A stretch of DNA of 44,905 bases from Bacteroidales bacterium (GCA_018400695.1 JAGYMF010000002.1:1-44905); one strand, 5' to 3'; positions 2,310 through 44,905 are shown, counted from the first letter of the stretch. Numbers and translations: made by a program. The notes: generated by a model not told the origin, from the sequence alone.

Positions 2310-3698
2310 TTAAAACTCAGCATTCTTCGGTGTTCGGGGAAATGGTATCACATCCCTGATATTGCTCATTCCGGTAACAAACATCAGCAACCGTTCAAAA
2401 CCAAGTCCGAACCCACTGTGTTCCACCGTACCAAATTTGCGGGTCTCAAGGTACCACCACAATTCATCCTCCGGAATATTCATCTCCCGCATTCTGTTCA
2501 CCAACTTGTCATAATCCTCCTCACGCTGGGATCCGCCAATGATCTCTCCGATCTTGGGAAAGAGAACGTCCATCGCCCTTACCGTCTTTCCTCCCTCATT
2601 CTGTTTCATATAAAATGATTTTATCTCAGCGGGGTAATCTGTTAAGATCACTGGCCGCCTGAAAGCAACCTCCACAAGGTAACGCTCGTGTTCTGCCTGC
2701 AGGTCATTGCCCCATTGAACCGGGAATTCAAACTTGTGACCGGAAGCCATCAGTACATCTACAGCTTCGGTATATGATTTCCTCACAAATGTGTTTTCTA
2801 CGATAAAATTCAATCTCTCCAGGAGCTCCTTATCGATCATCCTGTTCAGAAAATCCAGGTCGTCTGCACAATGTTCAAGTGCATATTTCACCAGGTATTT
2901 TAGAAAATCTTCTGCCAGGTCCATGTTATCATAGATATCATAAAAGGCCATTTCCGGTTCGATCATCCAGAATTCAGCAACGTGACGCGGAGTATTTGAA
3001 TTCTCCGCCCTGAATGTCGGCCCGAAGGTATAGATAGAGGAAAGTGCCAAGGCCCCTAATTCGCCTTCCAGTTGACCGGAAACAGTAAGGTTGGTGGACC
3101 TGCCAAAAAAATCCCGGCTGAAATCCAGCTGCTGTGCTTCATCCCTGGGAAGATTGTTCAGATCCAGGGTCGTTACACGGAACATTGCACCCGCTCCTTC
3201 AGCATCGGATGCTGTGATAATGGGGGTGTGCAGGTAATAAAAACCCTTGTCGTTAAAATACTGATGTATCGCAAACGAGAGTGCATGCCTGATCCTGAAC
3301 ACTGCACCAAAGGTGTTGGTTCTGAAACGGAGATGTGCTATTTCACGCAAAAACTCGAATGAATGCCCCTTCTTCTGAAGAGGATATACTTCCGGGTCAC
3401 AACCTCCGAGAAGCGAAATCTGATCCGCGTGAATCTCAACATTCTGTCCTTTCCCCGGCGATTCGACCAGGATACCCCGAACCGCAACAGAGCTTCCGGT
3501 AGTGATGTTTTTCACCAACTCTTCAGAAAACTTTTCAGCCTCGGCCACCACCTGAATATTGTGAATGGAGGTTCCATCATTTACTGCAATAAATGCCACC
3601 TGCCTGTTTCCTCTTTTTGTACGTACCCAACCCTTGAGCAAAACCTCCTTATTGAGCCTGTCTCCAGCAATTAACTCTTTAACTGTTGTTCGTGTCAT
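2310..3698 (-). CDS. asnS: Asparagine--tRNA ligase
   Basis: Class II aaRS motifs are present ([23 protein letters not shown]) with an OB-fold N-terminus ([22 protein letters not shown]). The ORF-track start at 3743 is a TTG. I prefer the first ATG at 3698 (MTRTTVKEL), which gives a typical length of about 462 aa and leaves a -7-like box upstream. Confidence 0.92.
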
Positions 3699-3740
3699 CT
3701 GTAACTGATTTGATGATCGGGAAAAATCCCCAATCCTTTT

Positions 3741-3756
3741 CAAAAATACAAAAATA
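3741..3756 (-). promoter_or_regulatory. Two tandem Bacteroidota -7-like boxes (TATTTTTG x2 on the minus strand) upstream of asnS
   Basis: The plus strand reads CAAAAATACAAAAATA, which is TAnnTTTG twice on the minus strand, 43-58 nt upstream of the ATG at 3698. I found no convincing -33 TTTG at canonical spacing. Confidence 0.3.
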
Positions 3757-3840
3757 AGATTTTTAAAACTGAATCAGCATATCAGCAAAGATAATACCAC
3801 ACATATACTAACTATCTGCAAATTATCGTTTTTAATCTGC

Positions 3841-3864
3841 ATTCCTTTACATTGTGAAAGGAAT
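3841..3864. repeat. Perfect 8-bp inverted repeat ATTCCTTT-N8-AAAGGAAT in the asnS/usp divergent intergenic region
   Basis: Read directly from the sequence. It lies 28 nt upstream of the ATG at 3892 and could be an operator or a 5'-UTR hairpin. Confidence 0.5.
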
Positions 3865-3891
3865 ACTTTAATTTTACAATCTTAAATAGAT

Positions 3892-4746
3892 ATGATCATA
3901 AAAATGAGTGAGGAAAAAAAGAAGATACTGGTTACATGGGATTTTTCTCAGGCCGCCATCAACGCACTGAAGCATGCTGTTAAGATAGGAAAGATCGTAG
4001 ACAATGATGTGGCCCTGTTTCACGTGACAACCGATATTGCACAAACAGATGAAGCGGAAAAGAAGCTGAAAGAGGCCAGTGCTGTACATTCCAGCGATCT
4101 GGATCATGATATATCATACATCCTGAAGAATGGATCGATCTTTGATGAGATATCCGATTATGCTTCCAATGAGAATAACCTTGTGAATTTTGCTATTCTC
4201 GGCACCCATGGTATCAAGGGAAGTCAGAAACTTTTCGGCAGCAAAGCCCTCCGGGTGATTAACGGGTCAACGGTGCCCTTTATGGTGGTACAGAATGAAC
4301 CGCGTGAAAAAGAACGGTTCACAGATATTGTGTTCCCCATAGATTTCAAATCAGAAAACAAGGAAAAATTACAATGGGCGATCTTCCTGGGAAAATACCT
4401 CAATTCAAAGGTCCATCTTTTCAAAGTGCCTTCACGCGATAAGTCCCTGACAAAAAAAGTGAATGTAAACCTCAATTTTGCCATCAGGTTTCTTATTCAA
4501 AACAATATCGAATATGAGATCCACTCAGCTGCCGAAGGCAAAAGTTTTATGAAAGAAACCCTTGCTTTCAGCAAAAGTGTGGATGCCGACCTGATCCTGA
4601 TCACAACAACAAAGCACATGACGCTTCTTGACCTTATCTTCAGTGCAAAGGAACAGTACCTGATCGCCAATGATGCCGGTATTCCGGTGATGTGCGTAAC
4701 CCCCAGGGCCAGCTTTGCCAAAGTCAGTCAGTTCATGTATGGATAG
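3892..4746 (+). CDS. Universal stress protein family protein (tandem USP domains)
   Basis: 284 aa. KKILVTWDFSQAAINALKHAV and a second half with DIVFPIDFKSENKEKLQWAI fit a two-USP-domain layout. An alternative start is the ATG at 3904. Confidence 0.65.
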   Translation: MIIKMSEEKKKILVTWDFSQAAINALKHAVKIGKIVDNDVALFHVTTDIAQTDEAEKKLKEASAVHSSDLDHDISYILKNGSIFDEISDYASNENNLVNFAILGTHGIKGSQKLFGSKALRVINGSTVPFMVVQNEPREKERFTDIVFPIDFKSENKEKLQWAIFLGKYLNSKVHLFKVPSRDKSLTKKVNVNLNFAIRFLIQNNIEYEIHSAAEGKSFMKETLAFSKSVDADLILITTTKHMTLLDLIFSAKEQYLIANDAGIPVMCVTPRASFAKVSQFMYG

Positions 4747-4776
4747 GTTCTTCACATGCTCAAAATATAAATTCCC

Positions 4777-5709
4777 GTGTCTATTAATGTAAAAAATATT
4801 TCCAGGCGCTTCGGTGAACAATGGGCCGTCAAGGATGTATCTTTCACGGTCGGTTCAGGTGAAATAGTAGGTTTTATTGGTCCGAACGGAGCCGGTAAAT
4901 CAACGACTATGAAGATCATTACCGGATTCCTGGCACCCAGTGCGGGAGAGGTACTGGTTAATGACTTGAATACCAGGGAGCATCCCATGGAGATAAAAAA
5001 GATCATCGGGTACCTTCCTGAGAATAATCCGCTTTACCAGGAAATGTACGTGACAGAATACCTGAAGTATGTAGCAGGACTGTATGGTATCCGGGGAGAA
5101 AAAGCGGACCGGAGGGTTGAAGATATCATAGAACATGTGGGGCTCCTTGATGAGCGGCATAAAAAGATTGAAAAACTCTCGAAAGGATACAGGCAAAGGG
5201 TCGGGTTGAGCCAGGCCCTGATCCATGATCCGGAAATTCTTATCCTGGATGAACCTACCTCAGGACTGGATCCTAACCAGATCGTCGGTATCCGTAACCT
5301 GATCTCCACCATGGGTGAGAAAAAAACAATCATCCTCTCAACACATATCATGCAGGAGGTGGAGGCAATCTGCGACAGGGTGATTATTATCGATCAGGGA
5401 AAGATAAAAGCAGACGAGGCTGCAGGTGATATCAGTAAAAAACAACATTCCGGTCAGACGATACAGGTGGAACTGGAAACTCATTTCCCGGCAGAAAAAT
5501 GGAAAATACTGGAAAATATTTCCGGGGTGATCGAACTTCCCGGGAATATCTACCTGCTGGCCACCGAAAAGCAAAAAGATATCCGATCCTCTGTATTCAG
5601 ATTTGCGGTGGAGAACAACCTGACTGTGCTATCTATGCATCTGAAAGAAAAAAGCCTTGAGGCTGTCTTCCGTGAACTTACAGGGGGCAATGGTTCCCTG
5701 AACCAGTAA
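4777..5709 (+). CDS. gldA: ABC transporter ATP-binding protein, GldA-like (gliding-motility-associated ABC ATPase)
   Basis: GTG start. Walker A is GPNGAGKST, the signature is LSKGYRQRVGL, and Walker B is ILILDEPTSGLD. STHIMQEVEAICDRVIII and the MSINVKNISRRFG N-terminus closely match my recollection of Flavobacterium GldA. Confidence 0.7.
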   Translation: MSINVKNISRRFGEQWAVKDVSFTVGSGEIVGFIGPNGAGKSTTMKIITGFLAPSAGEVLVNDLNTREHPMEIKKIIGYLPENNPLYQEMYVTEYLKYVAGLYGIRGEKADRRVEDIIEHVGLLDERHKKIEKLSKGYRQRVGLSQALIHDPEILILDEPTSGLDPNQIVGIRNLISTMGEKKTIILSTHIMQEVEAICDRVIIIDQGKIKADEAAGDISKKQHSGQTIQVELETHFPAEKWKILENISGVIELPGNIYLLATEKQKDIRSSVFRFAVENNLTVLSMHLKEKSLEAVFRELTGGNGSLNQ

Positions 5710-5776
5710 TACCAAGCCCCATTCTCCCTTTCTCATTTATAGGTAGTTGGGTTTTCCCAAACCATTTGGCATTGTA

Positions 5777-5808
5777 TTTGTAAACATATAGATATATTTA
5801 TATATTTG
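5777..5808 (+). promoter_or_regulatory. Candidate Bacteroidota sigma-A promoter (-33 TTTG / -7 TATATTTG)
   Basis: TTTG at 5777-5780 and TATATTTG at 5801-5808 are separated by 20 nt, 32 nt upstream of the ATG at 5840. Confidence 0.4.
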
Positions 5809-5839
5809 TCGATTCAAAAAAATTAAACCATGTAAACCT

Positions 5840-6826
5840 ATGAAGAAAAGAGTATTAATAAGTTTAGTAGTACTGGCTCTGGCAGGGGTTTCAATATTCG
5901 CGCAAACAACACTGACAGATGTAATCAATGAATTCAATGCAGGTGTTGAAAGTTTAAACGATCAGGCCTACGAACCAGCCCTTACTCAGTTTAACAAATC
6001 CCTTGAACTGTGCGAAGCGGTTGGAGAAGAATCTGACGATATGAAGAAAAAAGCACAGGAGCAGATAGTTGGCACCCATTACAGACAGGCCATTACGCTG
6101 ATGAAAAGAAAGCAATATGACAAAGCATTGCCTTCCCTCGAAAATACGGTGAAATATGCGAAAGAATATGAAGTAAAACCGGAATATGCGCAAAATGCCA
6201 TAAAATATCTTCCATCCCTGTACCTCAGGGAAGGAAATGTACTCCGGATGCAGGAAAAATATGATGAGGCTATAGACATATTCGACAAAGCCCTTGAATT
6301 GCAACCCACACTGTATAAAGCACATCAGGGAAAAGGGATGGTTTATAAAGACATCAACAATACCGACATGATGCTGGAGGAATTTGCCATCGCCAGGCAA
6401 AAAGCAGTTCAGAAAAATGACCAGGAGGTAATCAATGATATCAATGCAGCCATTAACGGGCACTTCAGGGTGCTCATTGATGAGGAGCTAATAATGATGG
6501 ACCCGGAAGATCCTGATTTTACTTTCCTGCTGGACATCTGTGATGAAGCGATTCAGGCCAACGACCAAAATTCTTATGCGTATTGGCAGGCTGCTACAGC
6601 ACTAAATAAAATGGTGGAATATGATAAAGCCATTGAATATGCAGAAAAAGCCGTGGCTTATGAAACAGACCCCGTGCTGTTATCTGCCCTGAATTACGAA
6701 TTGGGAATGGCATACTATAATACAGTCAGGTACGAAGATGCCTGTCAGGCCTTCAACAAGGTTACAGAAGAGCCTTTCCTCGGAAAAGCTGAAAAGAAAA
6801 TGAGTGCAACTCCAAACTGCATCTAA
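5840..6826 (+). CDS. Secreted tetratricopeptide-repeat (TPR) protein
   Basis: The N-terminal signal peptide is MKKRVLISLVVLALAGVSIFAQ. Repeated TPR-like units are present (YDEAIDIFDKALELQP, YDKAIEYAEKAVAYE, YEDACQAFNKV). Confidence 0.7.
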   Translation: MKKRVLISLVVLALAGVSIFAQTTLTDVINEFNAGVESLNDQAYEPALTQFNKSLELCEAVGEESDDMKKKAQEQIVGTHYRQAITLMKRKQYDKALPSLENTVKYAKEYEVKPEYAQNAIKYLPSLYLREGNVLRMQEKYDEAIDIFDKALELQPTLYKAHQGKGMVYKDINNTDMMLEEFAIARQKAVQKNDQEVINDINAAINGHFRVLIDEELIMMDPEDPDFTFLLDICDEAIQANDQNSYAYWQAATALNKMVEYDKAIEYAEKAVAYETDPVLLSALNYELGMAYYNTVRYEDACQAFNKVTEEPFLGKAEKKMSATPNCI

Positions 6827-6850
6827 AATAACAGACCTGAATACCATGAA

Positions 6851-6880
6851 AGCAGCGATAATATTTCGCTGTTTTTTTTT
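6851..6880 (+). terminator. Rho-independent terminator after the TPR gene
   Basis: Stem CAGCGA (6853-6858) pairs with TCGCTG (6866-6871) around loop TAATATT, followed by a run of nine T (6872-6880). Confidence 0.75.
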
Positions 6881-6920
6881 GGAATCAATTTAAATAATCA
6901 TTTTCTTTGTGCGTCGAGAT

Positions 6921-6970
6921 AAGTGGAAGGATTTGGCTGATTGCAACCACGGAAAAAAATTGCTAAAACA
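6921..6970 (+). promoter_or_regulatory. Candidate SAM-II-class riboswitch (H-type pseudoknot) in the metK leader
   Basis: GUGG (6923-6926) pairs with CCAC (6947-6950). Loop UUUGGC (6932-6937) can pair with the 3' tail GCUAAA (6962-6967), which follows an A-run (GGAAAAAAAUUGCUAAAACA). This resembles the conserved A-rich/GCUAAAA 3' strand of SAM-II as I remember it. It sits about 70 nt upstream of the metK ATG. Confidence 0.4.
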
Positions 6971-7041
6971 GTGTCTTTGTCCCGACAGCATTGCCCTTCC
7001 CCGCCACTTACCGCAGTGATTGTATAACAAATATTTGAACC

Positions 7042-12346: not shown

Positions 12347-15300
12347 CTATGATTTTCGCACACCTTTCAACACCCTTGTGGTCTCTCCCTTCCGTATAGT
12401 ATCATATACCACCGGTGTGGCAATGAACAAAGATGAGTAGGTTCCAACCACAACACCAATCAGCAGTGCAAAGATGAACCCACGTATCACATCACCTCCA
12501 AAGATAAAGATGGTAAGAAGCACAACAAACGTACTGAGAGATGTACTGAACGTCCTGCTCAGCGTACCGTTCAATGCCAAATTAAAGATCTCCTTACGCT
12601 CCCGTTTCCGGTGAAGTCCCAGGAATTCCCTGATCCGGTCAAATACCACCACGGTATCATTGATCGAGTAACCTACCACTGTGAGGATTGCTGCAATAAA
12701 GGCCTGGTCAATCTCCAGCGAGAAAGGCATGATGCCACTCAGCAGCGAGAAGATACCCATCACAATAATTACATCGTGCACCAGTGCCGTAAGCGCTCCT
12801 AAACCATACTGCCAGTTCCGGAATCGAATCAGGATATACATGAATATGATTGCTAGTGAAGCAAGAACCACCCATACCGAACTTCTTTTGATATCGTCGG
12901 CAATGGTTGGACCCACCTTGTGGGCGCTGACAATATACTCCTGATCACTGACAAACTCATTTAAACCGACCTCGTCACCCAACAATGACTGCAAGCTGCT
13001 AAACATTGTAGCCTTGATAATGGAATCAGCCTCCGGCCTTTCATCTTCAATCATATACTTGGTCGTAACACGCACTGCGTTCTTCTGTCCAAAAGTAATT
13101 ACAGTAGGCATTTCACCAAATCCGTCAGTAAGCAATTCTCTGACCTGTGTTACATCCACATCCTCCTTGAACTCTATCACATAGTTTCGTCCACCGGTAA
13201 AATCAACACCGCCGTTCAACCCTCTGAATGTAAGTGACAAAATACTAGCAGCTACAAGAATTCCGGAAATCACATAGGCAATTTTTCTTTTGTCAAGGAA
13301 TTTAATCTTCGTATTCTGGAATGCATTCTCGGTAAGCTTTGTAGAGAAGGTCAGTTTCCAGCCTTTTTCAAGATAGCGCTCATAAACAAGCCTGGTCAGA
13401 ATCACAGCAGAAAAGAGTGAAGTCAGAATACCAATAACCAGCGTGGTTGCAAAACCCTTGATCGGCCCCGTACCGAAAAAGAAGAGAATCAGTGCCGTAA
13501 GGAATGTGGTAACGTTGGCATCGATGATCGCAGAATAGGCATTTCTGTAACCATCCTTGATGGCTGCCTTCTTCCCCTTTCCGGCAGCAAGTTCCTCCCG
13601 GATCCTGTCATATATCAGTACATTGGCATCCACCGACATACCAATGGTAAGCACAATACCAGCGATACCCGGCAGGGTCAGCGCCGCCTGCAATGAAGCC
13701 AACACACCGATCAGAAAAAACATGTTCGCAATCAACGCAAGGTCAGCTACCAGACCGGCCCTGCGGCTGTAATAGAAAACCATATAAAGGAGCACCACCA
13801 CAAAAGCAATCAGGAACGAATTAAAACCTGCCTTCACAGATTTTGCCCCCAGTGAGGGGCCGATCACTTCACTTGATTCCACCCTGGCCCTGGCCGGCAT
13901 TTTACCCGACTTCAGGATATTCGCAAGGTCGGTAGCCTCATTCTGGGTAAAATTACCGGAAATGGAGGAACTGCCTCCCTTGATCTCTTCATTCACATTG
14001 GGTGCAGAGTATACCACCCCGTCCAGTACAATCGCAATCGCCTTCTGTACATTTTCCCTTGTCAGATTGGCCCACCGTTTGGCACCCTCTGAATTCATGC
14101 TCATGGAGACCTCAAAAGCACCCGTATATTGGTCCGTAGTTGTTCGCGCATCCGTTACATATTTTCCATCCATCGCAGGCTGTCCATTCCTGGTGGCCTT
14201 TAGCGAATAGAGGTAAATAAACTCCGTCTCTTCACCCATTCCCTGGAAGTGCCAGGCAAACCTCAGATCAGCAGGGAACAACTGCCTTACCCGTGGAATG
14301 GATAAATATTCGTTCACCTTGGCTGTATCACTCAACTCAACCACCCCAATTACAGCACTTGGTATTAGCTGACCTTCATTGTTCACATAGGGCCGCATTA
14401 CAGCAAACAGTGGATTATCACGCATAAATGCAGCTTCCTCTTCCCCGAACAAATCTGCTTCACCACTGTCATCAAGAAGGCTGAGATCTGCGGTATCAGA
14501 TAAGATACGTTCATCATCCAGCAGCATCTCTTCATCCTCTTTCTCCGACTCTTCCAGTACTGCTACTTCTGCTTCAGTATCCTGCGACGCTTCATCTTCA
14601 AGAGTTTCCGAAGTACTGCTCATATCAGCAATGATCTGGTTGGCCTCTTCAATAGAGGACCAGACATCAACATTCTCATAAGTGGTCCAAAACTCCAGAT
14701 TAGCAGTACCGGTTAGAAGCTTTGTTACACGCTCAGGCTCTTTCACACCAGGCAGTGCAACCAGAATACGTCCCTGGCGCTCCAAACGCTGGATATTCAT
14801 CTGCACAACACCAAAACGGTCAATCCTGTTGCGGAGAACGTTGTATGAATTATCAATGGCATCCTCAGCTTCTCTCTTCAGAAATTCAACCACCTCATCA
14901 TTGGAAGTATTGAAATCAATATCTCCCCTGGATTCCGGCGTCATAAAGAACTGGGCCAGCTGTGCACCCGGATTCTGCTCCTCAAATGCATCTGCAAACA
15001 GATCAACAAAATCATTTGTTGAATTTCTCTTTTCTATCTTGGCAGCATCCATTGAGGAAGTGAAAACCGGATCGGATAAATATTGCGGTGCCGCTAAAGC
15101 CCGGATAATATCTTCCACAGCGATCTCCAGCACCACATTCATACCCCCCTTGAGGTCCAGCCCCAGGTTAATCTCTCGCTCTTTACAATCCTGGTATGTG
15201 TACTTCTTCAACCAAACGAAATTATAGATCTCCACATTCTTCATGGAATCGAGATATGCCCTCTCCACAACGGGATCCCCCTGGGCAACATTCCGTGCTT

Positions 15301-15400
15301 CACGCTCTACCTTGGTGGTGAAAAAAGTAAATGTCAACTGGTAAAGACAAATTGCTGCGAAAGTGATAGCCAATAATTTTACAGCACCTTTATTCTGCAT
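12347..15400 (-). CDS. secDF: Protein translocase subunit SecDF (fused SecD-SecF)
   Basis: 1017 aa. The SecD part shows LGLDLKGGMNVVLE and LPGIAGIVLTIGMSVDANVLIYDRIREE. The SecF part shows GVDFTGG and GYSINDTVVVFDRIRE. Confidence 0.95.
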   Translation of the reverse strand: MQNKGAVKLLAITFAAICLYQLTFTFFTTKVEREARNVAQGDPVVERAYLDSMKNVEIYNFVWLKKYTYQDCKEREINLGLDLKGGMNVVLEIAVEDIIRALAAPQYLSDPVFTSSMDAAKIEKRNSTNDFVDLFADAFEEQNPGAQLAQFFMTPESRGDIDFNTSNDEVVEFLKREAEDAIDNSYNVLRNRIDRFGVVQMNIQRLERQGRILVALPGVKEPERVTKLLTGTANLEFWTTYENVDVWSSIEEANQIIADMSSTSETLEDEASQDTEAEVAVLEESEKEDEEMLLDDERILSDTADLSLLDDSGEADLFGEEEAAFMRDNPLFAVMRPYVNNEGQLIPSAVIGVVELSDTAKVNEYLSIPRVRQLFPADLRFAWHFQGMGEETEFIYLYSLKATRNGQPAMDGKYVTDARTTTDQYTGAFEVSMSMNSEGAKRWANLTRENVQKAIAIVLDGVVYSAPNVNEEIKGGSSSISGNFTQNEATDLANILKSGKMPARARVESSEVIGPSLGAKSVKAGFNSFLIAFVVVLLYMVFYYSRRAGLVADLALIANMFFLIGVLASLQAALTLPGIAGIVLTIGMSVDANVLIYDRIREELAAGKGKKAAIKDGYRNAYSAIIDANVTTFLTALILFFFGTGPIKGFATTLVIGILTSLFSAVILTRLVYERYLEKGWKLTFSTKLTENAFQNTKIKFLDKRKIAYVISGILVAASILSLTFRGLNGGVDFTGGRNYVIEFKEDVDVTQVRELLTDGFGEMPTVITFGQKNAVRVTTKYMIEDERPEADSIIKATMFSSLQSLLGDEVGLNEFVSDQEYIVSAHKVGPTIADDIKRSSVWVVLASLAIIFMYILIRFRNWQYGLGALTALVHDVIIVMGIFSLLSGIMPFSLEIDQAFIAAILTVVGYSINDTVVVFDRIREFLGLHRKRERKEIFNLALNGTLSRTFSTSLSTFVVLLTIFIFGGDVIRGFIFALLIGVVVGTYSSLFIATPVVYDTIRKGETTRVLKGVRKS

Positions 15401-37413: not shown

Positions 37414-38571
37414 TTAAAAATAGTAGCTGCCATCTATCAGAACATCATGCAGGGTAGTGTCCAGCACCTCAATCCATGGATCCTGCAACACCCCTGTTTT
37501 GACCGGGTTTTTCCTGAAGACCAGCTGATCATCCTTCTCCTCTTCAAGTATAAGCACGTAACGCAGGTCGTTTTCGGTAATTACCGCTGTTGAAGGCAAT
37601 GCCAGCGTTTCACGGTAGCAGGTTATGATCGCTGCCTGAACATACGATCCGTCCACAAAACCGGAAGCAACATGCTCATCGGGCACCGCCACACATTCAA
37701 TGGTCCTCTTCTCTCCATCTACCGTTCTGCCCACATGCAACAGGGTTGCACCATATACCTGTCCGGGCCGACCCGGATCATAATACGTCACGTTTTGTCC
37801 GGCAGCCAGCATCGCAATATCCTTTTCAAAAACATGCAGATACAGCCCAAGTCTGGTTGTGTCGATGATCTCCGCAACAGACCTGTAGGGTTCAACAACC
37901 GCTCCCCTTACCAGTGCCATACGGGTAACCACACCGCTGGAAGGTGCGTTCACCGTTACCCCCGGTGCGATCTTGCCCTGTTCCACCTGCCGTGGATCAA
38001 TATTGATCAGCTTCAATCTCGCCTTCAGCCCTTCTGCCTGGGCAAGCATGCTCCTGTACTCACTTTCCGCCTTGACAAGTTCCTTTCCAGCAGAAACATT
38101 TCCCTCCGAAAGTACCTGCTGCCGCTTGTAAATGCTCTCCAGCAGACGAAGGTCATGGAATGCTTTTGCATATTCCTGCTGCAGCTGAATAATCTCATTC
38201 CCCTCCATAAAAAACATCTTCTCGCCCCGGGCCAGGTACTCCCCCAGGGAAAACCCGATCTCCTTCACCCTTCCGGGGATAAATACACTTACCTCTGTCT
38301 TCCCCTGCGGGGTCGCCCGGACATACCCGGTAGCGTCCACCGTTTGCTGAAAGCTCACCACTTCCGGATCGCCCGTATTCATGCCGACGCCCTCAAACTG
38401 CGCCCTGGTCAGCACAATACGCGATGCTTCCGTCTGGCCGGTCGCGGAAGCTGATGCCGCTCCGGCATCTTCCTCTGCAGATTCACCTCCGGCGCCTGAC
38501 TGACAACCACCCAGGGCCATGAATACCAGCACCGGAATCGCCTGGAAAACATTTCTAAAAACCTTCTTCAT
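37414..38571 (-). CDS. Efflux RND transporter periplasmic adaptor (membrane fusion protein), lipoprotein
   Basis: MKKVFRNVFQAIPVLVFMALGGC lipobox. It has a coiled-coil hairpin region (QQEYAKAFHDLRLLESIYKRQQ...AESEYRSMLAQAEGLKARL) and a beta-barrel C-terminal part. The ORF-track start at 38592 is a TTG, so I prefer the ATG at 38571. Confidence 0.85.
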   Translation of the reverse strand: MKKVFRNVFQAIPVLVFMALGGCQSGAGGESAEEDAGAASASATGQTEASRIVLTRAQFEGVGMNTGDPEVVSFQQTVDATGYVRATPQGKTEVSVFIPGRVKEIGFSLGEYLARGEKMFFMEGNEIIQLQQEYAKAFHDLRLLESIYKRQQVLSEGNVSAGKELVKAESEYRSMLAQAEGLKARLKLINIDPRQVEQGKIAPGVTVNAPSSGVVTRMALVRGAVVEPYRSVAEIIDTTRLGLYLHVFEKDIAMLAAGQNVTYYDPGRPGQVYGATLLHVGRTVDGEKRTIECVAVPDEHVASGFVDGSYVQAAIITCYRETLALPSTAVITENDLRYVLILEEEKDDQLVFRKNPVKTGVLQDPWIEVLDTTLHDVLIDGSYYF

Positions 38572-38588
38572 AACATCTGTTTTTGCAA

Positions 38589-41500
38589 TCAAAGTGTATT
38601 GTAATTAATCTCCAGTACGACCCTGTTGTATTCATAGAGCTCATCCAGGTAATCCATCTCGATACAGAGCGCAGCATCCAGCGTATGGACCAACTCCAGG
38701 AAACTGATCTCCCCGGCGTCAAAACTCTCCTGTGCCGTCCTGATCAGCTCGGCAGAAATCTGCCGTCCGTTCTCTTCAAAATATGTGACCGTTCTGCGAC
38801 GCTTTTCCAATTCTTTCATAAGCTGTCCCAACCTGTTATCATAGCTCCTCCGATAATTCTCCAGCATCTGTTCGGACGCCTCCGCAGCATATTTCTCTGC
38901 CTTGATCCTGGCTTTCTGCTCGCCAAAAAACAGGGGGATTCCCAATCCGACCTCAAACACCTGGTAATTTCTGGCATCAGCATAACTGTTCGTTCCGTTG
39001 TAATAACCCAGCGTCAGATCCGGGAGCAGCCTGTTCTTCTCAACCTTCAGGTTCGCCTGCCGCAGGAGCACTGCATTTTCATGGTAATTGTATCCGGGAT
39101 CCGCCCCAATACCACCATGATTCACAGCCACCATTTTCGGCAGCTCTTCCTGAACCACAAAACTGCTGTCGAAATGCATCAGTGCAGCCAAATTTCCATG
39201 GGCAATTTCTACATCAAATTCCAACTGTTCCTGCATCAGTTTCATCCGGCTCTGCTGTGCCCGGGCATTCAGCATCTCCAGATAAGGACTCTCTCCCTGG
39301 TCATACTTCAGTGCCGCAGCCTCGGCATAATTCTCATAGATCTGGTTCACCTTGTCACACTGCTCCTTCTTCTTTTGCAAATAGTACAAATTATAATAGG
39401 CCCCTGTCACCTCCCGCGTCAACGTCCTGCGCATCTGCTCAACCTTGTCATTGGCCATTGTTGCAGCCATCGTATTGGCCTTCTTCTGAGCTACATACAG
39501 CGAAGGAAAATCAAACCGCTGCTCTCCACCGAGCACCCCGATGGGATAGTCGTTGTGGGCAATGTTGTTTTCATCATAGGTGTAAGAGATGGTGGCCCGG
39601 TCCAGGCTGAAGGCGGTAGCGATCAGGGCATCGCTCTCGGCCGCCAGTGCATTATATGCCGCCAGCTCACTGTTGTTTTGGTACGATATCTCCAACGCCT
39701 CATCAAGGGTAATGGTCTTTACCGGTTCTCCGGGCTGCGATGGAACAGCGAACAGGGCTGAAAACGGCAGCAAACAGATCAGCAACAGGGAAAGTCCCTT
39801 TCTGCCTTTCCGCCATCCGGGCAGACGAAGCTTGAGCGGCTTCATCTCATCAAAAATGGAATACAACAGTGGCAGCGCAAGCATGGTCAGCAGCGTAGAG
39901 GTAACAAGTCCTCCAATAACCACCGTTGCCAGTGGCCGCTGCACCTCCGCACCGGCAGAGGTTGAAATAGCCATGGGCAAAAACCCCATTGCTGCAGCTG
40001 AAGCGGTAAGCAATACCGGGCGCAACCGCTCCCTGGTTCCTTTAAGTACTCTCTCTTTCATATTGGTCACTCCTTTCTTTTTTAGTTCCTTCAGATAATC
40101 GATCAGAACAATGGCATTCAATACTGCCACGCCGAACAGGGCGATAAACCCGATACCGGCTGAAATGCTAAAAGGCATTCCCCTGATCCATAATAACATT
40201 ACCCCGCCAACAACAGCCAGCGGAATTGCCGTAAAAACCATGGCCGCTTCCTTCAGGGAGCCGAATGCAAAATGTAGGAAGATAAAGATCAACAGCAAGG
40301 CCACCGGCACCGCATATTTTAATCGTTGTGTAGCCTGCTCCAGGTTTTCAAATTGTCCCCCGTAATCCAGGTAATACCCGGCTGGCAACTCCAGGTTTTC
40401 ATTGAGGATCCCCTGAATATCTGAAACCACCGATTCCAGGTCACGGTTGCGGACATTCACGCTCACAACCACCCTGCGCTTGGCATCATCGCGCGAAATT
40501 TTTGCAGGACCAGTGGTATATTGAATATCTGCCAGCTCTTTCATGGGAACCTGCGCGCCGTTGGGCAGGCTGACAAGAAGGTTTCTGATATTTTCAATAT
40601 CCTCCCGGTAATCGGGATGAAGCCTCGTAACGAGCTCAAACCTTCGCTCCCCCTCGAAAATACTGCCTGCCGCACCCCCGGCAAAAGCAGTTGTGAGATA
40701 CTGGTTCAGCTCATCCACACTCATTCCATAATAGGCCAGCTTTCCACGGTTATAATCTACCTTCATCTGTGGCAATCCTTCTGTTTTCTCCACGATAATA
40801 TCTTCGGCACCAGGAACACCTTCGATCAGTGTCTTCACCTCCCCGGCCTTATCCGCCAGGATAGAAAGGTCCTCCCCGAACAACTTAATGGCCAGGTCAG
40901 CACGCACCCCTGTGATCAGCTCATTGAACCGCATCTCAATAGGCTGGGTAAACTCATATTCAATACCGGGCAGGACCGACAGGGCGTCCTTAAACAGTCC
41001 GGCCAGATCCTCCTTGCTATCGGCCGACACCCACTCCTTACGCGGATGCAGCTTTATGATCATATCAATCTCCTCCATGGACATCGGATCGGTGGGCACC
41101 TCAGCAGCACCGATACGGCAAACGATCTGATCCACTTCCGGAAACTCATCGATCAGAATACGCTCCATCTCTGTCGTCAACTCTATGGTTTTTGACAGTG
41201 ATGTACCGGTCTTTAGTACAGGCTGGATCACAAAATCTCCTTCATCAAGGGTCGGCACAAACTCTCCTCCCATTTTCGAAAAAACCACCCCGGTAAGCAC
41301 CAGTGAAGCAATTGCCAATCCGAAGATCACCCCCTTGTGGTCGTATGACCAACGGATCACGGGATCATACGAACGGTAAATCAGCCGCATGAAATAACGG
41401 GTAACTATAAATTGCTTTTCACCTTCCGGCCTGAGAAAGAGGGAGGCCGCAACGGGAAGCCATGTAAATCCGAAAAACATTGCACCCAGCAGGGCAAAGC

Positions 41501-42956
41501 TGAAAGAGAGGGCCATCGGGCGGAACATTTTACCCTCTACACCGGTAAGCATCAGCACCGGGATAAAAACGATCAGGATGATCACCTGTCCGAATATGGC
41601 CGAATTGATCATTTTCGATGCCCCGTCGAAGGTGATGCTGTCCATCATTGTCTGCCGCTCCGCACCAGAAGTCCCCTCAAGTTTGGCCCTGTTCACCGTC
41701 AGCCGGATCACAATAAACTCCACGATGATCACCGCTCCGTCAATAATAATACCGAAGTCAAGCGCTCCAAGGCTCATCAGGTTGGCATCAATACCGAAGA
41801 TATACATCATCGCTATTGTGAAAAGAAGTGACAGCGGAATGATGGAAGCAACGACCAGTCCCGACCGCAGGTTTCCCATCAGCAGCACCACTGTAAGGAA
41901 TACGATCAGGCAGCCGTAAAGCAGGTTCTCAAAAACCGTGTGCGAGGTCTTTCCTATCAGTTCGCTGCGTTCAACAATGGGGTTGATATAAACCCCCTCG
42001 GGAAGCGATTCCTGCACCTCATCCACGCGCTCCTTCACCGCTTTGATCACCTTGTTGGAGTTGGCATCCTTCAGCATCATGATCTGTCCCATCACCTTCT
42101 CTCCTTCACCATTGGCCGTGATGGCTCCAAACCTGTTGGCACTCCCGAAACGGACCTCAGCAAGGTCACGGACCAGCACAGGAATACCGTGATCATTCGA
42201 AACAACGACCTGCCTGAGATCCTCCAGCGACAAGATCAATCCATCGCCACGTATAAAGTAACTCTGATTCGTCTTTTCAATATAGGCCCCTCCGGCTACC
42301 CCGTTGTTCTCCTGCAGGGCCCGGTGCACATCCAGCAGGGAGACACCATAACGCTTCAGCGTTTCGGGATTTACAGCGACCTCATACTGCTTCAGGAAAC
42401 CTCCCCATGTATTCACCTCAACCACCCCCGGAATCCCCGAAAGCTGTCGCTTTACAATCCAATCCTGAATCGTCCGCAGGTCCATGATGGAATATTTCTC
42501 CTTATACCCCGGTTCCGTATCCAGGATATACTGATAGATCTCACCCAGCCCTGTAGAGATCGGTCCCATTTCGGGGGTCCCGAATCCCTCAGGAATATTG
42601 GCAGTTGCACTCTTTATCTTCTCTGCGATCAGCTGTCGGGGGAGATACGCGCCCAATTTATCTTCAAATACGATGGTGACCACGGACAATCCAAATTTCG
42701 AAATGGACCGTATCTCAGTTACACCCGGAAGATTAGACATCTCCAGCTCCACAGGATAGGTAATAAACTGCTCCACATCCTGTGTGGAAAGATTTGGCGA
42801 GGTAGTGATTACCTGCACCTGGTTGGTGGTAATATCCGGTACGGCACCAAGCGGAATCTGAAAGATGGCATAAACACCAAAACCTGCAACTAAAATTGTG
42901 AGTAATATCGCAATAAGCTTGTGCTTAATGCTTAAGTTGATCATCCTGTTCAGCAT
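38589..42956 (-). CDS. CzcA-like heavy-metal RND permease fused in frame to a TolC-family outer-membrane factor
   Basis: 1455 aa. Residues 1-1037 are CzcA-like (AVPDITTNQVQV, GPISTGLGEIYQY, 12-TM layout, ending ..ALPLLYSIFDE). Residues 1038-1455 begin MKPLKLRLPGWRKGRKGLSLLLICLLPFSALFAVPSQ and continue as a full OEP/TolC-like protein (ITLDEALEISYQNNSEL, LLPDLTLGYY, GEISFLELV). There is no stop codon between the two parts. Confidence 0.9.
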   Translation of the reverse strand: MLNRMINLSIKHKLIAILLTILVAGFGVYAIFQIPLGAVPDITTNQVQVITTSPNLSTQDVEQFITYPVELEMSNLPGVTEIRSISKFGLSVVTIVFEDKLGAYLPRQLIAEKIKSATANIPEGFGTPEMGPISTGLGEIYQYILDTEPGYKEKYSIMDLRTIQDWIVKRQLSGIPGVVEVNTWGGFLKQYEVAVNPETLKRYGVSLLDVHRALQENNGVAGGAYIEKTNQSYFIRGDGLILSLEDLRQVVVSNDHGIPVLVRDLAEVRFGSANRFGAITANGEGEKVMGQIMMLKDANSNKVIKAVKERVDEVQESLPEGVYINPIVERSELIGKTSHTVFENLLYGCLIVFLTVVLLMGNLRSGLVVASIIPLSLLFTIAMMYIFGIDANLMSLGALDFGIIIDGAVIIVEFIVIRLTVNRAKLEGTSGAERQTMMDSITFDGASKMINSAIFGQVIILIVFIPVLMLTGVEGKMFRPMALSFSFALLGAMFFGFTWLPVAASLFLRPEGEKQFIVTRYFMRLIYRSYDPVIRWSYDHKGVIFGLAIASLVLTGVVFSKMGGEFVPTLDEGDFVIQPVLKTGTSLSKTIELTTEMERILIDEFPEVDQIVCRIGAAEVPTDPMSMEEIDMIIKLHPRKEWVSADSKEDLAGLFKDALSVLPGIEYEFTQPIEMRFNELITGVRADLAIKLFGEDLSILADKAGEVKTLIEGVPGAEDIIVEKTEGLPQMKVDYNRGKLAYYGMSVDELNQYLTTAFAGGAAGSIFEGERRFELVTRLHPDYREDIENIRNLLVSLPNGAQVPMKELADIQYTTGPAKISRDDAKRRVVVSVNVRNRDLESVVSDIQGILNENLELPAGYYLDYGGQFENLEQATQRLKYAVPVALLLIFIFLHFAFGSLKEAAMVFTAIPLAVVGGVMLLWIRGMPFSISAGIGFIALFGVAVLNAIVLIDYLKELKKKGVTNMKERVLKGTRERLRPVLLTASAAAMGFLPMAISTSAGAEVQRPLATVVIGGLVTSTLLTMLALPLLYSIFDEMKPLKLRLPGWRKGRKGLSLLLICLLPFSALFAVPSQPGEPVKTITLDEALEISYQNNSELAAYNALAAESDALIATAFSLDRATISYTYDENNIAHNDYPIGVLGGEQRFDFPSLYVAQKKANTMAATMANDKVEQMRRTLTREVTGAYYNLYYLQKKKEQCDKVNQIYENYAEAAALKYDQGESPYLEMLNARAQQSRMKLMQEQLEFDVEIAHGNLAALMHFDSSFVVQEELPKMVAVNHGGIGADPGYNYHENAVLLRQANLKVEKNRLLPDLTLGYYNGTNSYADARNYQVFEVGLGIPLFFGEQKARIKAEKYAAEASEQMLENYRRSYDNRLGQLMKELEKRRRTVTYFEENGRQISAELIRTAQESFDAGEISFLELVHTLDAALCIEMDYLDELYEYNRVVLEINYNTL

Positions 42957-43120: not shown

Positions 43121-43128
43121 TATATTTG
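43121..43128 (+). promoter_or_regulatory. -7-like box TATATTTG upstream of the small Cys-rich gene
   Basis: It ends 17 nt upstream of the ATG at 43146. There is no -33 TTTG at canonical spacing; the nearest TTTG is 13 nt away. Confidence 0.25.
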
Positions 43129-43145
43129 TGACATAAAATCTGATT

Positions 43146-43523
43146 ATGCTCAGGAAATTTGGCAATATAATGACGATGTGCCTGTTGTTGATCTCGACCA
43201 CGGGATTTGCCGTTTCTGAACATTTTTGTGGAACAGATCTTGTATCCATCGAATTGAATAAAGAGGCTGAGCCCTGCTGTGATAACGCAATGTGTTGTCA
43301 TTCCGAAACGCAGTTTTACCAGTTAGATGAAGATTTTATGTTTACTGCGACCAGTTACGATTTTGAAACCCTCACGGTAACAGATCTTCCCCAACTAGCA
43401 GTGCATCCACAATTTGACCTTACCAGAATTGATGCAGCGCAGGCCCTTTGTATTGACTTTGAGTCGCCTCCCCCGCCGGAAAGAAAAGTCATTCTTTCCA
43501 CACTTCAGATATATATATTATGA
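43146..43523 (+). CDS. Small membrane-anchored or secreted Cys-rich protein, HYC_CC_PP-like, a putative metal-binding accessory of the downstream CusA-like pump
   Basis: 125 aa with an N-terminal hydrophobic segment (MTMCLLLISTTGFAV). The motifs are EHFCG, PCCDNAMCCH and SPPPPE. The length and the H-aromatic-C / CC / PP pattern match what I recall of the NCBI HYC_CC_PP family found next to Bacteroidota heavy-metal RND genes. Confidence 0.6.
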   Translation: MLRKFGNIMTMCLLLISTTGFAVSEHFCGTDLVSIELNKEAEPCCDNAMCCHSETQFYQLDEDFMFTATSYDFETLTVTDLPQLAVHPQFDLTRIDAAQALCIDFESPPPPERKVILSTLQIYIL

Positions 43524-43615: not shown

Positions 43616-44905
43616 ATGTTGAATAAAATAATCAAGTACTTTCTTGATAATAAATTGGTTACCATTCTGGTCCTTACCGTATTCATCGCATGGGGGATTG
43701 TAACAGCACCCTTTGGCTGGAACCTGGGCAACCTGCCTTCCGACCCGGTTCCGGTGGATGCCATCCCCGATATCGGAGAAAACCAGCAGATCGTATTTAC
43801 AGAATGGATGGGAAGGTCGCCCCAGGACATTGAGGACCAGATATCCTATCCCCTCACAACCTACATATTGGGTATACCAGGTGTGAAATCGATCAGGAGC
43901 ACATCAGTGTTTGGATTCTCCAGTATCTTCATTATTTTCAATGAAGATGTTGAATTCTACTGGTCCCGATCCAGGATCCTCGAAAAACTAAATGCGCTTC
44001 CCTCGGGTTTGCTTCCCGATGACGTTCAACCAGCCCTGGGGCCTGATGCCACGGCACTCGGCCAGGTATTCTGGTACACACTGGAAGGACGTGATCCCGA
44101 TGGCAATCCGACGGGTGGATGGGACCTGCATGAGATCCGGACCGTCCAGGATTTTTATGTAAAATATGGCTTGAACGCTACGGAAGGGGTCTCAGAAGTT
44201 GCTTCTATCGGTGGTTTCGTACAGGAATACCAGGTGGATGTGAATCCGGATGCCCTGAAAGCCTATAACATTCCCCTCCATAAGGTAATGATGGCCGTGC
44301 AGAAATCGAACCGTGACGTCGGAGCAAAGACCATCGAGATCAACCAGGCGGAATACCTGGTACGCGGATTAGGTTATGTAAAAAGCATCGAAGACCTTGA
44401 GGAGGCTATAGTTGCGGTGAAGGAAAATGTCCCCGTACGGATCAAAGATATCGCTGTTGTAAAGCTCGGCCCTGCCACAAGGCGGGGGGCCCTTGACAAA
44501 GACGGTGCGGAAGTTGTAGGTGGCGTAGTGGTGGCACGCTATGGTGCCAACCCGCTGCAGGTGATCAATAACGTGAAAGAAAAGATCATTGAGATCACAC
44601 CAGGACTCCCGAAAAAAACGCTGGAGGACGGGACCGAAAGCCAGCTTACCATCGTGCCCTTTTATGATCGTTCTGAACTGATCTACGAGACCCTGGGAAC
44701 ACTGGAAGAGGCCCTCTCATTGGAGATCCTGATCGCCATCCTCGTAGTAATCGTTATGGTCTTCAACCTGCGGGCCTCCCTGCTGATATCAAGTCTGCTT
44801 CCCATTTCGGTGCTCATGGTGTTTATCTCCATGCGTTATTTCGGGGTGGATGCGAACATCGTGGCGCTGTCCGGAATCGCCATCGCCATCGGCACCATGA
44901 TCGAC
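43616..44905 (+). CDS. CusA-like heavy-metal efflux RND permease, N-terminal 430 codons (runs off the window)
   Basis: ATG at 43616, open to the window end. It aligns by eye to E. coli CusA (PVDAIPDIGENQ, GPDATALGQ versus GPDATGVG, EVASIGGFVQEYQVDVNP, LSGIAIAIGTMID). It is absent from the ORF track because no stop codon lies inside the window. Confidence 0.92.
   Translation, partial: MLNKIIKYFLDNKLVTILVLTVFIAWGIVTAPFGWNLGNLPSDPVPVDAIPDIGENQQIVFTEWMGRSPQDIEDQISYPLTTYILGIPGVKSIRSTSVFGFSSIFIIFNEDVEFYWSRSRILEKLNALPSGLLPDDVQPALGPDATALGQVFWYTLEGRDPDGNPTGGWDLHEIRTVQDFYVKYGLNATEGVSEVASIGGFVQEYQVDVNPDALKAYNIPLHKVMMAVQKSNRDVGAKTIEINQAEYLVRGLGYVKSIEDLEEAIVAVKENVPVRIKDIAVVKLGPATRRGALDKDGAEVVGGVVVARYGANPLQVINNVKEKIIEITPGLPKKTLEDGTESQLTIVPFYDRSELIYETLGTLEEALSLEILIAILVVIVMVFNLRASLLISSLLPISVLMVFISMRYFGVDANIVALSGIAIAIGTMID

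Follow-up and report, generated by a model that had tools for sequence, protein, structure and literature searches.

Tripartite pumps of the RND (resistance-nodulation-division) type play a central part in resistance to metals and drugs. Nearly all work on their assembly has dealt with Proteobacteria, in which the parts are separate proteins. A gene in a 44,905-nt stretch of Bacteroidales bacterium DNA (GCA_018400695.1 JAGYMF010000002.1:1-44905; called the window here, with positions counted within it) raised the question of how an inner-membrane RND permease and an outer-membrane factor (OMF) that are encoded as one continuous chain could each be delivered to its own membrane. The initial annotation of the window offered three explanations: the junction between the two parts was a 13th transmembrane (TM) segment that was cut by signal peptidase, the OMF was translated separately from an internal ATG, or a stop codon was lost recently or through a sequencing error. 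The comparative evidence presented here favored the first explanation. Specifically, we consider it quite probable that the fused gene encodes a polyprotein precursor and that this precursor is matured by signal peptidase I (SPase I) at an internal signal peptide, with the predicted cut between S1073 and Q1074.

The N-terminal portion of the predicted protein was matched by Pfam ACR_tran at amino acids (aa) 5 to 1035 (E = 5.8e-274) and by the NCBIfam CusA/CzcA model TIGR00914 at aa 1 to 1035 (1131 bits, relative to a cut-off of 701). The closest solved structures were ZneA (4k0e; E = 7e-198) and CusA (3k07), and both aligned along aa 1 to 1037. Hydropathy analysis placed 12 RND TM segments at aa 14-32, 345-560 (six segments), and 883-1030 (five segments), with two large periplasmic loops of ~300-310 aa each after TM1 and TM7. 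The TM4 motif DFGIIIDGAVIIVEF (D400/D406/E413) aligned with ZneA DFGIIVDGAIVVMEN and retained the charged D-D-E triad. The Asn that closes the classical ...VEN motif of heavy-metal efflux (HME) pumps (ZneA ...VVMEN) was Phe in the TM4 signature of the window. The TM4 sequence DFGxxxDGAxxxVEN was reportedly described by Nies in 2003 as a proton-relay motif, with the D-D-E triad typical of divalent-cation HME pumps. The family cut-off, the 12-TM layout, and the TM4 motif identified the RND part as a predicted member of the HME-RND CusA/CzcA family.

The C-terminal 418 aa scored as OEP/TolC: Pfam OEP matched in two stretches (E = 6.7e-25; 88.4 bits, relative to a gathering cut-off of 22). The initial annotation had described the fusion correctly. 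A phmmer search of the OMF part against PDB sequences yielded no match at E <= 1, indicating that the OMF was divergent, and its fold was therefore established with AlphaFold2 and Foldseek. The AlphaFold2 model of the C-terminal 418 aa, which was built on 110 aligned sequences, had a predicted local distance difference test score (pLDDT) of 92.5 and a predicted template modeling score of 0.85. It contained beta-strands at model residues 85-95, 101-111, 276-285, and 294-302 and paired helices of ~69 residues at model residues 114-182 and 308-376. This protomer layout, four strands plus long alpha-hairpins, corresponded in the model to one third of a 12-strand barrel and alpha-tunnel. Foldseek returned 44 significant matches with the model, and all were OMFs (TM-scores of 0.65-0.73, ~400 columns, 12-17% identity), including TolC, SilC, OprN, CusC, CmeC, OprM, VceC, and MtrE. 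Because the matches were only to solved OMFs and extended across ~400 columns, the OMF was judged to be complete. Scores for TIGR01844 (TolC type-I-secretion; 21.3 bits versus 225) and TIGR01845 (NodT; 18.1 bits versus 210) were below the cut-offs, and a lipobox was found in 0 of 81 junctions (the window plus the 80 related loci described below), which placed the OMF outside those two named subfamilies. CusC/CzcC-type OMFs, in contrast, are often lipoproteins. The modeling indicated that the fused partner is a complete, divergent, non-lipoprotein OMF of TolC fold, and the claim of an in-frame fusion between a CzcA-like RND permease and a complete OMF was therefore upheld by the two Pfam matches and the whole modeled fold. 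Of the three components of a CzcCBA/ZneCAB-like efflux pump, presumably one for divalent metals, the gene product would supply two.

To establish how widespread this architecture was, a 520-aa query that spanned the junction was used in a protein search, and 7174 proteins were matched at E <= 1e-10. Among the top 120, almost every protein had both Pfam domains and full query coverage, with identity down to 37%. A scan of genome contigs with a single sequence gave no matches; an alignment-driven scan of species-representative genomes gave the loci, and the 80 best tblastn matches to the junction-spanning query were analyzed. A continuous stop-to-stop frame of 1438-1500 codons was present in 77 of the 80 loci. 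Two of the remaining three were truncated by contig ends, and one (L009) had a broken OMF. The loci spanned all major orders of Bacteroidota (Flavobacteriales, Cytophagales, Chitinophagales, Sphingobacteriales, and Bacteroidales/Marinilabiliales), as well as Ignavibacteria/Melioribacteraceae, a metagenome-assembled genome (MAG) of Chlorobiota, and one Gemmatimonadota MAG, and they included cultured isolates and complete genomes. The statement in the initial annotation that "CzcA" proteins of more than 1400 aa exist in Bacteroidota was thus correct, both in the database search and at the genome loci. The gene for the periplasmic adaptor, or membrane fusion protein (MFP), was located directly downstream on the same strand in 71 of the 80 loci. 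The order RND-OMF followed by MFP, which had been noted for the window, is therefore a family trait.

These data bear on the idea that there are in reality two genes, which either seem fused because of an indel from sequencing or assembly (an artefact) or were joined by a recent accident, such as the fresh loss of a stop codon. One point in its favor came from L009 (CAVTME010000022.1, locus 3004-7014), which is the closest genome relative (56% identity across the junction): its OMF frame was broken 261 codons past the TM12 motif, with the MFP gene ~600 nt further on. We regard a frameshift error in this long-read MAG as the probable cause of the L009 break and a pseudogene as possible. Against the idea, 77 of 80 independent assemblies kept the frame, and the junction DNA of the window was not a homopolymer. 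Recent stop loss or sequencing error was rejected on these grounds as an explanation for the long ORF, and the assemblies indicate that the fusion is conserved, widespread, and not an artefact.

The junction of the window protein read ...LPLLYSIFDE-MKPLKLRLPGWRKGRKGLSLLLICLLPFSALFAVPSQPGE..., with M1038 encoded at 39845-39843 and Q1074 at 39737-39735. Hydropathy analysis revealed a 13th hydrophobic segment at aa 1054-1072 and none further on. The Kyte-Doolittle 19-mer score of this segment was 2.2, and that of the h-region was 2.2-2.7. Among the 81 junctions, the linkers started after the RND end LPxLYxxF, averaged 14.4 aa, and contained 4.8 K+R versus 1.0 D+E. A hydrophobic 13-mer with a Kyte-Doolittle score of 1.9-3.5 was present in 81 of 81 junctions, and a small-x-small sequence followed by Gln was located 13-25 residues past the start of the hydrophobic core in 78 of 81. 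Position -1 of these sites was Ala in 55 of the 78, position -3 was A, I, V, G, S, or L, and position +1 was Gln in 78 of the 81 junctions. When local residues were shuffled, a site was found in 34±4 of 81 junctions (maximum, 46), and the same test found a site after only 6.7% of 756 other hydrophobic segments in these proteins. The junction sequence itself varied across the window and the 80 loci, while the signal-peptide design was retained. The signal-peptide-like character attributed to the junction was therefore substantiated by the basic linker, the hydrophobic core, and the small-x-small site before Gln. In this design, the linker is the counterpart of the RND tail together with the n-region of a signal peptide, and it holds a nonconserved in-frame ATG at 39845-39843 in the window.

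A Gln at +1 has been described as a signature of Bacteroidetes SPase I substrates: on average, 71% of the predicted substrates have it, and the figure for Ignavibacterium is 77% (PMC5837995). The junction shared with these Q-rule signal peptides a basic n-region, a hydrophobic core, small residues at -3 and -1, and Gln at +1 (PMC5837995). In the supplement of that study, the stand-alone "OM Efflux protein" Tanf_07615 of T. forsythia had a pyroglutamate (pyroGlu) N terminus after ...FCAMA/QEVLTLDQ, where the slash marks the cut; the supplements listed only this stand-alone protein and no fused RND entry (PMC5837995). The Q-rule also held in the window, in which four of four other SPase-I-type proteins (genes at 5840, 18423, 33206, and 34946) exposed Gln at +1. 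Canonical signal peptides are N-terminal; the segment in the window, by contrast, followed 12 TM segments and began at residue ~1038. With this internal position, ~1040 residues in, it would stay on the upstream protein after cleavage. Taken together, these features suggest that the junction is functionally signal-peptide-like and formally an internal signal, or cleavable 13th TM segment.

Fused genes outside Bacteroidota also had Gln at +1, specifically those of the Chlorobiota MAG (L003, …SYT/QEK), Melioribacteraceae (L007, …ING/QSK), Ignavibacteria (L037, …ADG/QQI), and the Gemmatimonadota MAG (L040, …VGA/QSA). The Q-rule is reported to be inconsistent outside Bacteroidetes, and these cases would fit either a rule that extends further than Bacteroidetes or genes acquired horizontally from Bacteroidota. 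In the subclade of the window (40-57% identity), alignment columns ~475-495 contained a semiconserved linker motif, (V/I)(T/K)G(I/F)(Q/R)(L/F)(W/F)P(P/L)(K/R)(F/L)(K/I)R, and aa 1038-1053 of the window protein (KPLKLRLPGWRK) were a divergent copy of it. This conservation exceeds the needs of an n-region, and the linker is possibly an amphipathic interfacial element.

Stand-alone relatives of the OMF were sought via an exhaustive HMMER search of the mature OMF against 1.84 billion representatives. The matches were of three kinds: fused proteins (e.g., P0148, 1447 aa), fragments with RND tails, and ~50 genuine stand-alone OMFs. The stand-alone proteins were 394-409 aa long; in each, a Met was followed by a basic n-region and then a hydrophobic core, and 46 of 50 carried ...AQ/Q. 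The first OMF motif contains a conserved Asn, and the predicted +1 Gln preceded it by a median of 17 residues (interquartile range [IQR], 16-18) in the stand-alone proteins and 18 (IQR, 17-20) in the fused ones. The matched spacing and signal-peptide form indicated that the junction was the OMF's own signal peptide, now internal.

Three stand-alone relatives with sufficient flanking sequence, at L081, L083/L084, and L085/L086, were in unfused RND-OMF-MFP operons, and a fourth stand-alone relative (L082) was an orphan gene. In the operons, the OMF ATG overlapped the RND stop codon in another frame within A-rich sequence, by 14 nt (L081), 17 nt (L083), and 4 nt (L085). The unfused and fused states differed by as little as one base within the A-rich tract, and a ±1 indel in the overlap would turn the tail of the RND part, joined to the n-region of the OMF, into a basic linker as long as those observed. 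Such a tract is an error-prone context, which is the other point in favor of an artefact. However, the signal-peptide features persisted despite sequence turnover, and large all-fused clades existed, and we give next to no credence to the artefact explanation. In a neighbor-joining tree of OMF domains, fused and stand-alone members were intermixed beside these large all-fused clades, and the Fitch minimum was 24 changes, a figure that we treat as unreliable because the tree had no support values and a comb-like topology. The pattern suggests repeated toggling between fusion and fission.

If the junction is an internal signal peptide, it also has to be asked whether the OMF could instead be made separately, by internal initiation at the ATG at 39845, as an ordinary pre-OMF, with the long ORF a read-through by-product. 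In the window, this ATG was located exactly at the start of the n-region; an ATG was present in the linkers of 34 of 81 loci and some ATG, GTG, or TTG in 53 of 81, and the mature OMF would be identical by either route. Met was also mildly enriched at the positions 2-7 residues ahead of the hydrophobic core: it was there in 21 loci, versus ~12 expected by our own estimate (six positions in 81 loci at a background of 2.5%). This excess may have been left over from the start of the ancestral OMF. However, M1038 was not conserved, being V, I, T, or K in the closest relatives, and Met made up 2.2% of linker residues versus 2.5% overall, which is the background frequency. None of the three start codons was present between the RND end and the core in 28 of 81 loci, and the OMF in these loci could therefore be made only within the fusion. 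In addition, the Bacteroidetes-type -7 promoter motif TAnnTTTG was absent from the coding strand inside the fused gene. A weaker argument is that the junction AUG was in a predicted 9-bp stem and followed T-rich, not A-rich, sequence; the local RNA structure was no more stable than that of shuffled sequences (z = -0.44) and was thus uninformative. Finally, ribosomes already engaged on the RND part would continue past this site in any case, and the cell must therefore produce the fusion protein and handle it. Separate translation from an internal ATG thus lacked support as a conserved mechanism. The codon comparisons indicate that the in-frame Met is incidental, and we regard internal initiation as an unlikely account of how the OMF is made, although it may be a minor extra route in the window organism.

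Under the preferred reading, SPase I cleavage of a polyprotein, the RND part with its 12 TM segments and cytoplasmic C terminus would be inserted cotranslationally, and the 16-aa K/R-rich linker would remain in the cytoplasm. The segment at aa 1054-1072 would then insert N-in/C-out as a 13th TM segment, serving as an internal Sec signal peptide, and the ~380-aa OMF would pass through to the periplasm just as the large periplasmic loops of the pump itself do. SPase I would cut after ...AVPS1073 and release a free OMF with an N-terminal Gln1074, which would presumably be cyclized to pyroglutamate, as in other exported proteins of Bacteroidetes. Once free, the OMF would form a trimer in the outer membrane and be connected to the RND trimer by the lipoprotein adaptor, the product of the downstream gene. 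The RND would retain a tail of ~36 residues (the linker and the 13th helix). In this scheme, a ±1 indel between overlapping RND and OMF genes gave rise to the fusion, which would hard-wire 1:1 synthesis of RND and OMF.

The C terminus of RND proteins is cytoplasmic in the solved CusA, ZneA, and AcrB structures. Together with the basic linker (positive-inside rule), a cytoplasmic C terminus implies that the 13th segment is oriented N-in/C-out and that the OMF is translocated. The topology of the fusion had been called problematic, but it poses no real difficulty: with the basic linker in the cytoplasm and the next segment N-in/C-out, the OMF would be placed in the periplasm, as with the two large loops of every RND pump.

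The length of chain between the 13th segment and the folded OMF bears on the possibility that the protein stays uncleaved, with the 13th helix as a permanent anchor and the OMF working tethered to the pump or in a periplasmic role. In the AlphaFold2 model, pLDDT was 64 before model residue ~41 and climbed there to 96, so that the folded OMF started ~5 residues past the predicted site. In assembled tripartite pumps (e.g., 5NG5), the N-terminal/equatorial region of the OMF is >100 Å from the inner membrane. Judged by the known dimensions of AcrAB-TolC-type assemblies, a tether of ~5 residues would be too short to reach the outer membrane, and cleavage or separate synthesis would therefore be needed for function. 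In addition, a conserved small-x-small sequence followed by Gln would be purposeless in an anchor, and the stand-alone orthologues are ordinary exported OMFs. We find an uncleaved protein scarcely credible for these reasons.

A further alternative is that the precursor is cleaved by another protease (rhomboid or site-2-type intramembrane protease) or at another site, such as by SPase I between A1070 and V1071, the cut proposed in the initial annotation. The site in the window, V-P-S at -3 to -1 and Gln at +1 (Q1074), gives some room for this alternative because it is atypical at -2 and -1, and A1070/V1071 satisfies the -1/-3 rule. The relatives, however, showed standard A-x-A/Q sites that were positionally homologous to the cleavage sites of stand-alone OMFs. 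The Q-rule and homology to the relatives make the cut between S1073 and Q1074 likelier than that between A1070 and V1071, and we consider another protease or site very unlikely.

Several points weigh against SPase I maturation of a conserved polyprotein. The site in the window was less canonical than those in relatives, with Ser at -1 and Pro at -2, and A1070/V1071 offers an alternative site. All of the sites were called by our own rule-based scan. The set of 80 loci measures the breadth of the fusion and not the frequency of fused relative to unfused genes. Because the linker of the window gene opens with an in-frame ATG, a separately initiated pre-OMF may be made in this organism. Finally, the cleavage of fused members is itself an inference.

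The findings also allow a broader picture, to which we incline only slightly. In many Bacteroidota lineages (at least the 28 loci without a start codon), the OMF would come obligatorily from an RND-OMF polyprotein cut by SPase I. The cut would leave a 13-TM RND protein, in which the additional helix may serve some separate purpose (e.g., packing against the TM domain in the manner of AcrZ and other small accessory proteins), and the fused and unfused states would have been toggled repeatedly via single-base indels. This would constitute an undescribed biogenesis route for tripartite efflux pumps.

Comparison with known systems helps to place the fused gene. Like the CzcCBA, ZneCAB, and CusCBA systems of Proteobacteria, it belongs with an HME-RND, an MFP, and an OMF, and its RND part is homologous to ZneA and CusA along the whole length. 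Those systems, however, are encoded by three separate genes, usually in the order C-B-A, whereas the window has a single RND-OMF ORF followed by the MFP gene. The unfused Bacteroidota operons at L081, L083/L084, and L085/L086 share the gene order, the OMF subfamily (27-35% identity), and the signal-peptide spacing; they differ in having two overlapping genes and an OMF with its own ATG, of which the window gene is the in-frame version. The nearest mechanistic precedent known to us is the FbcH cytochrome b-c1 polyprotein of Bradyrhizobium japonicum, which reportedly (Thöny-Meyer and colleagues, in PNAS, 1991) contains an internal signal sequence and is processed into two subunits. FbcH likewise links a polytopic inner-membrane protein to a periplasm-facing partner via an internal signal-like segment, but both products remain in the inner membrane and the families are unrelated, whereas the window product would be bound for the outer membrane as a beta-barrel/alpha-tunnel trimer. 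The window also encodes SecDF (12347-15400, minus strand; 1017 aa) as a fused protein, which is a known arrangement. SecDF is similar in that two membrane partners from the RND superfamily, which other bacteria encode separately, are naturally fused, but it is one uncleaved inner-membrane protein with no change of compartment.

We found no description of a natural RND-OMF fusion or of its maturation in the available portions of the literature searched, including a 2021 Chem Rev review of tripartite pumps and an outer-membrane porin survey from the Saier laboratory. Thousands of database entries for a "1450-aa CzcA" hide an OMF, and the operons consequently look devoid of an outer-membrane component. 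If the proposed maturation is true, an outer-membrane channel can begin as the tail of an inner-membrane protein, and SPase I can process a signal peptide located after 12 TM segments. The 1:1 stoichiometry of RND and OMF would also be genetically fixed, which might be useful in Bacteroidota, where Shine-Dalgarno translational coupling is little used. One gene with two products in two membranes would provide an experimental handle on OMF targeting in Bacteroidota. The coordinates of the fused gene, its parts, and the adaptor gene are listed in Table 1.

Table 1. Positions of the fused gene, its predicted parts, and the downstream adaptor gene in the window
Feature	Coordinates	Strand	Details
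Fused ORF, whole	38589..42956	-	1455 codons + stop (stop codon 38589-38591); single ATG-to-stop ORF in ORF list
HME-type RND permease, aa 1-1037	39846..42956	-	Pfam, TIGR00914, ZneA/CusA alignment, hydropathy
TM4 signature DFGIIIDGAVIIVEF, aa 400-414	about 41715-41759	-	Alignment to ZneA
Basic linker, predicted cytoplasmic, aa 1038-1053 (MKPLKLRLPGWRKGRK)	39798..39845	-	7 K/R, no D/E
13th hydrophobic segment, putative h-/c-regions of internal signal peptide, aa 1054-1073 (GLSLLLICLLPFSALFAVPS)	39738..39797	-	Hydropathy, site scan
Predicted mature OMF, aa 1074-1455	38592..39737	-	382 aa, N-terminal Gln, TolC fold, non-lipoprotein
MFP periplasmic adaptor gene	37414..38571	-	Pfam HlyD_D23, TIGR01730 RND_mfp; putative lipoprotein

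In the case of the MFP gene, the ATG at 38571 was 17 nt past the stop codon of the fused gene and gave a predicted lipoprotein N terminus, MKKVFRNVFQAIPVLVFMALGG followed by C. The ORF finder started the gene at a TTG (37414-38592), which overlapped the stop codon of the fused gene by 4 nt. The ATG at 38571 is likely to be the true start, giving a lipoprotein adaptor.

One of the unfused operons, L083/L084 (874-9206; OMF P0153), was located downstream of a histidine kinase gene and adjoined HTH_17, DUF3408, and MobC_2 genes, which are typical of conjugative or mobilizable elements of Bacteroidetes. An identical copy of P0153 was indexed in 127 blocks of the collection. These observations suggest that the L083/L084 operon is a widely disseminated mobile metal-resistance module.

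On the plus strand of the window, a gene of the HYC_CC_PP family (43146-43523; 125 aa), with the motifs EHFCG, PCCD, CC, and PPPP, preceded a second heavy-metal RND gene. The HYC_CC_PP protein is probably a small metal-binding membrane or periplasmic protein. It was considered as part of the fused-gene system and dropped, as tblastn found no counterpart adjoining the fused gene in the 80 loci and the gene heads the second operon. The second RND gene started at 43616 and ran past the end of the window, and its first 430 aa matched TIGR00914 at E = 9e-107. The two metal-efflux operons of the window were thus divergently arranged, and a Bacteroidetes -7-like sequence, TATATTTG, was located at 43121-43128, 18 nt before the ATG of the HYC_CC_PP gene.

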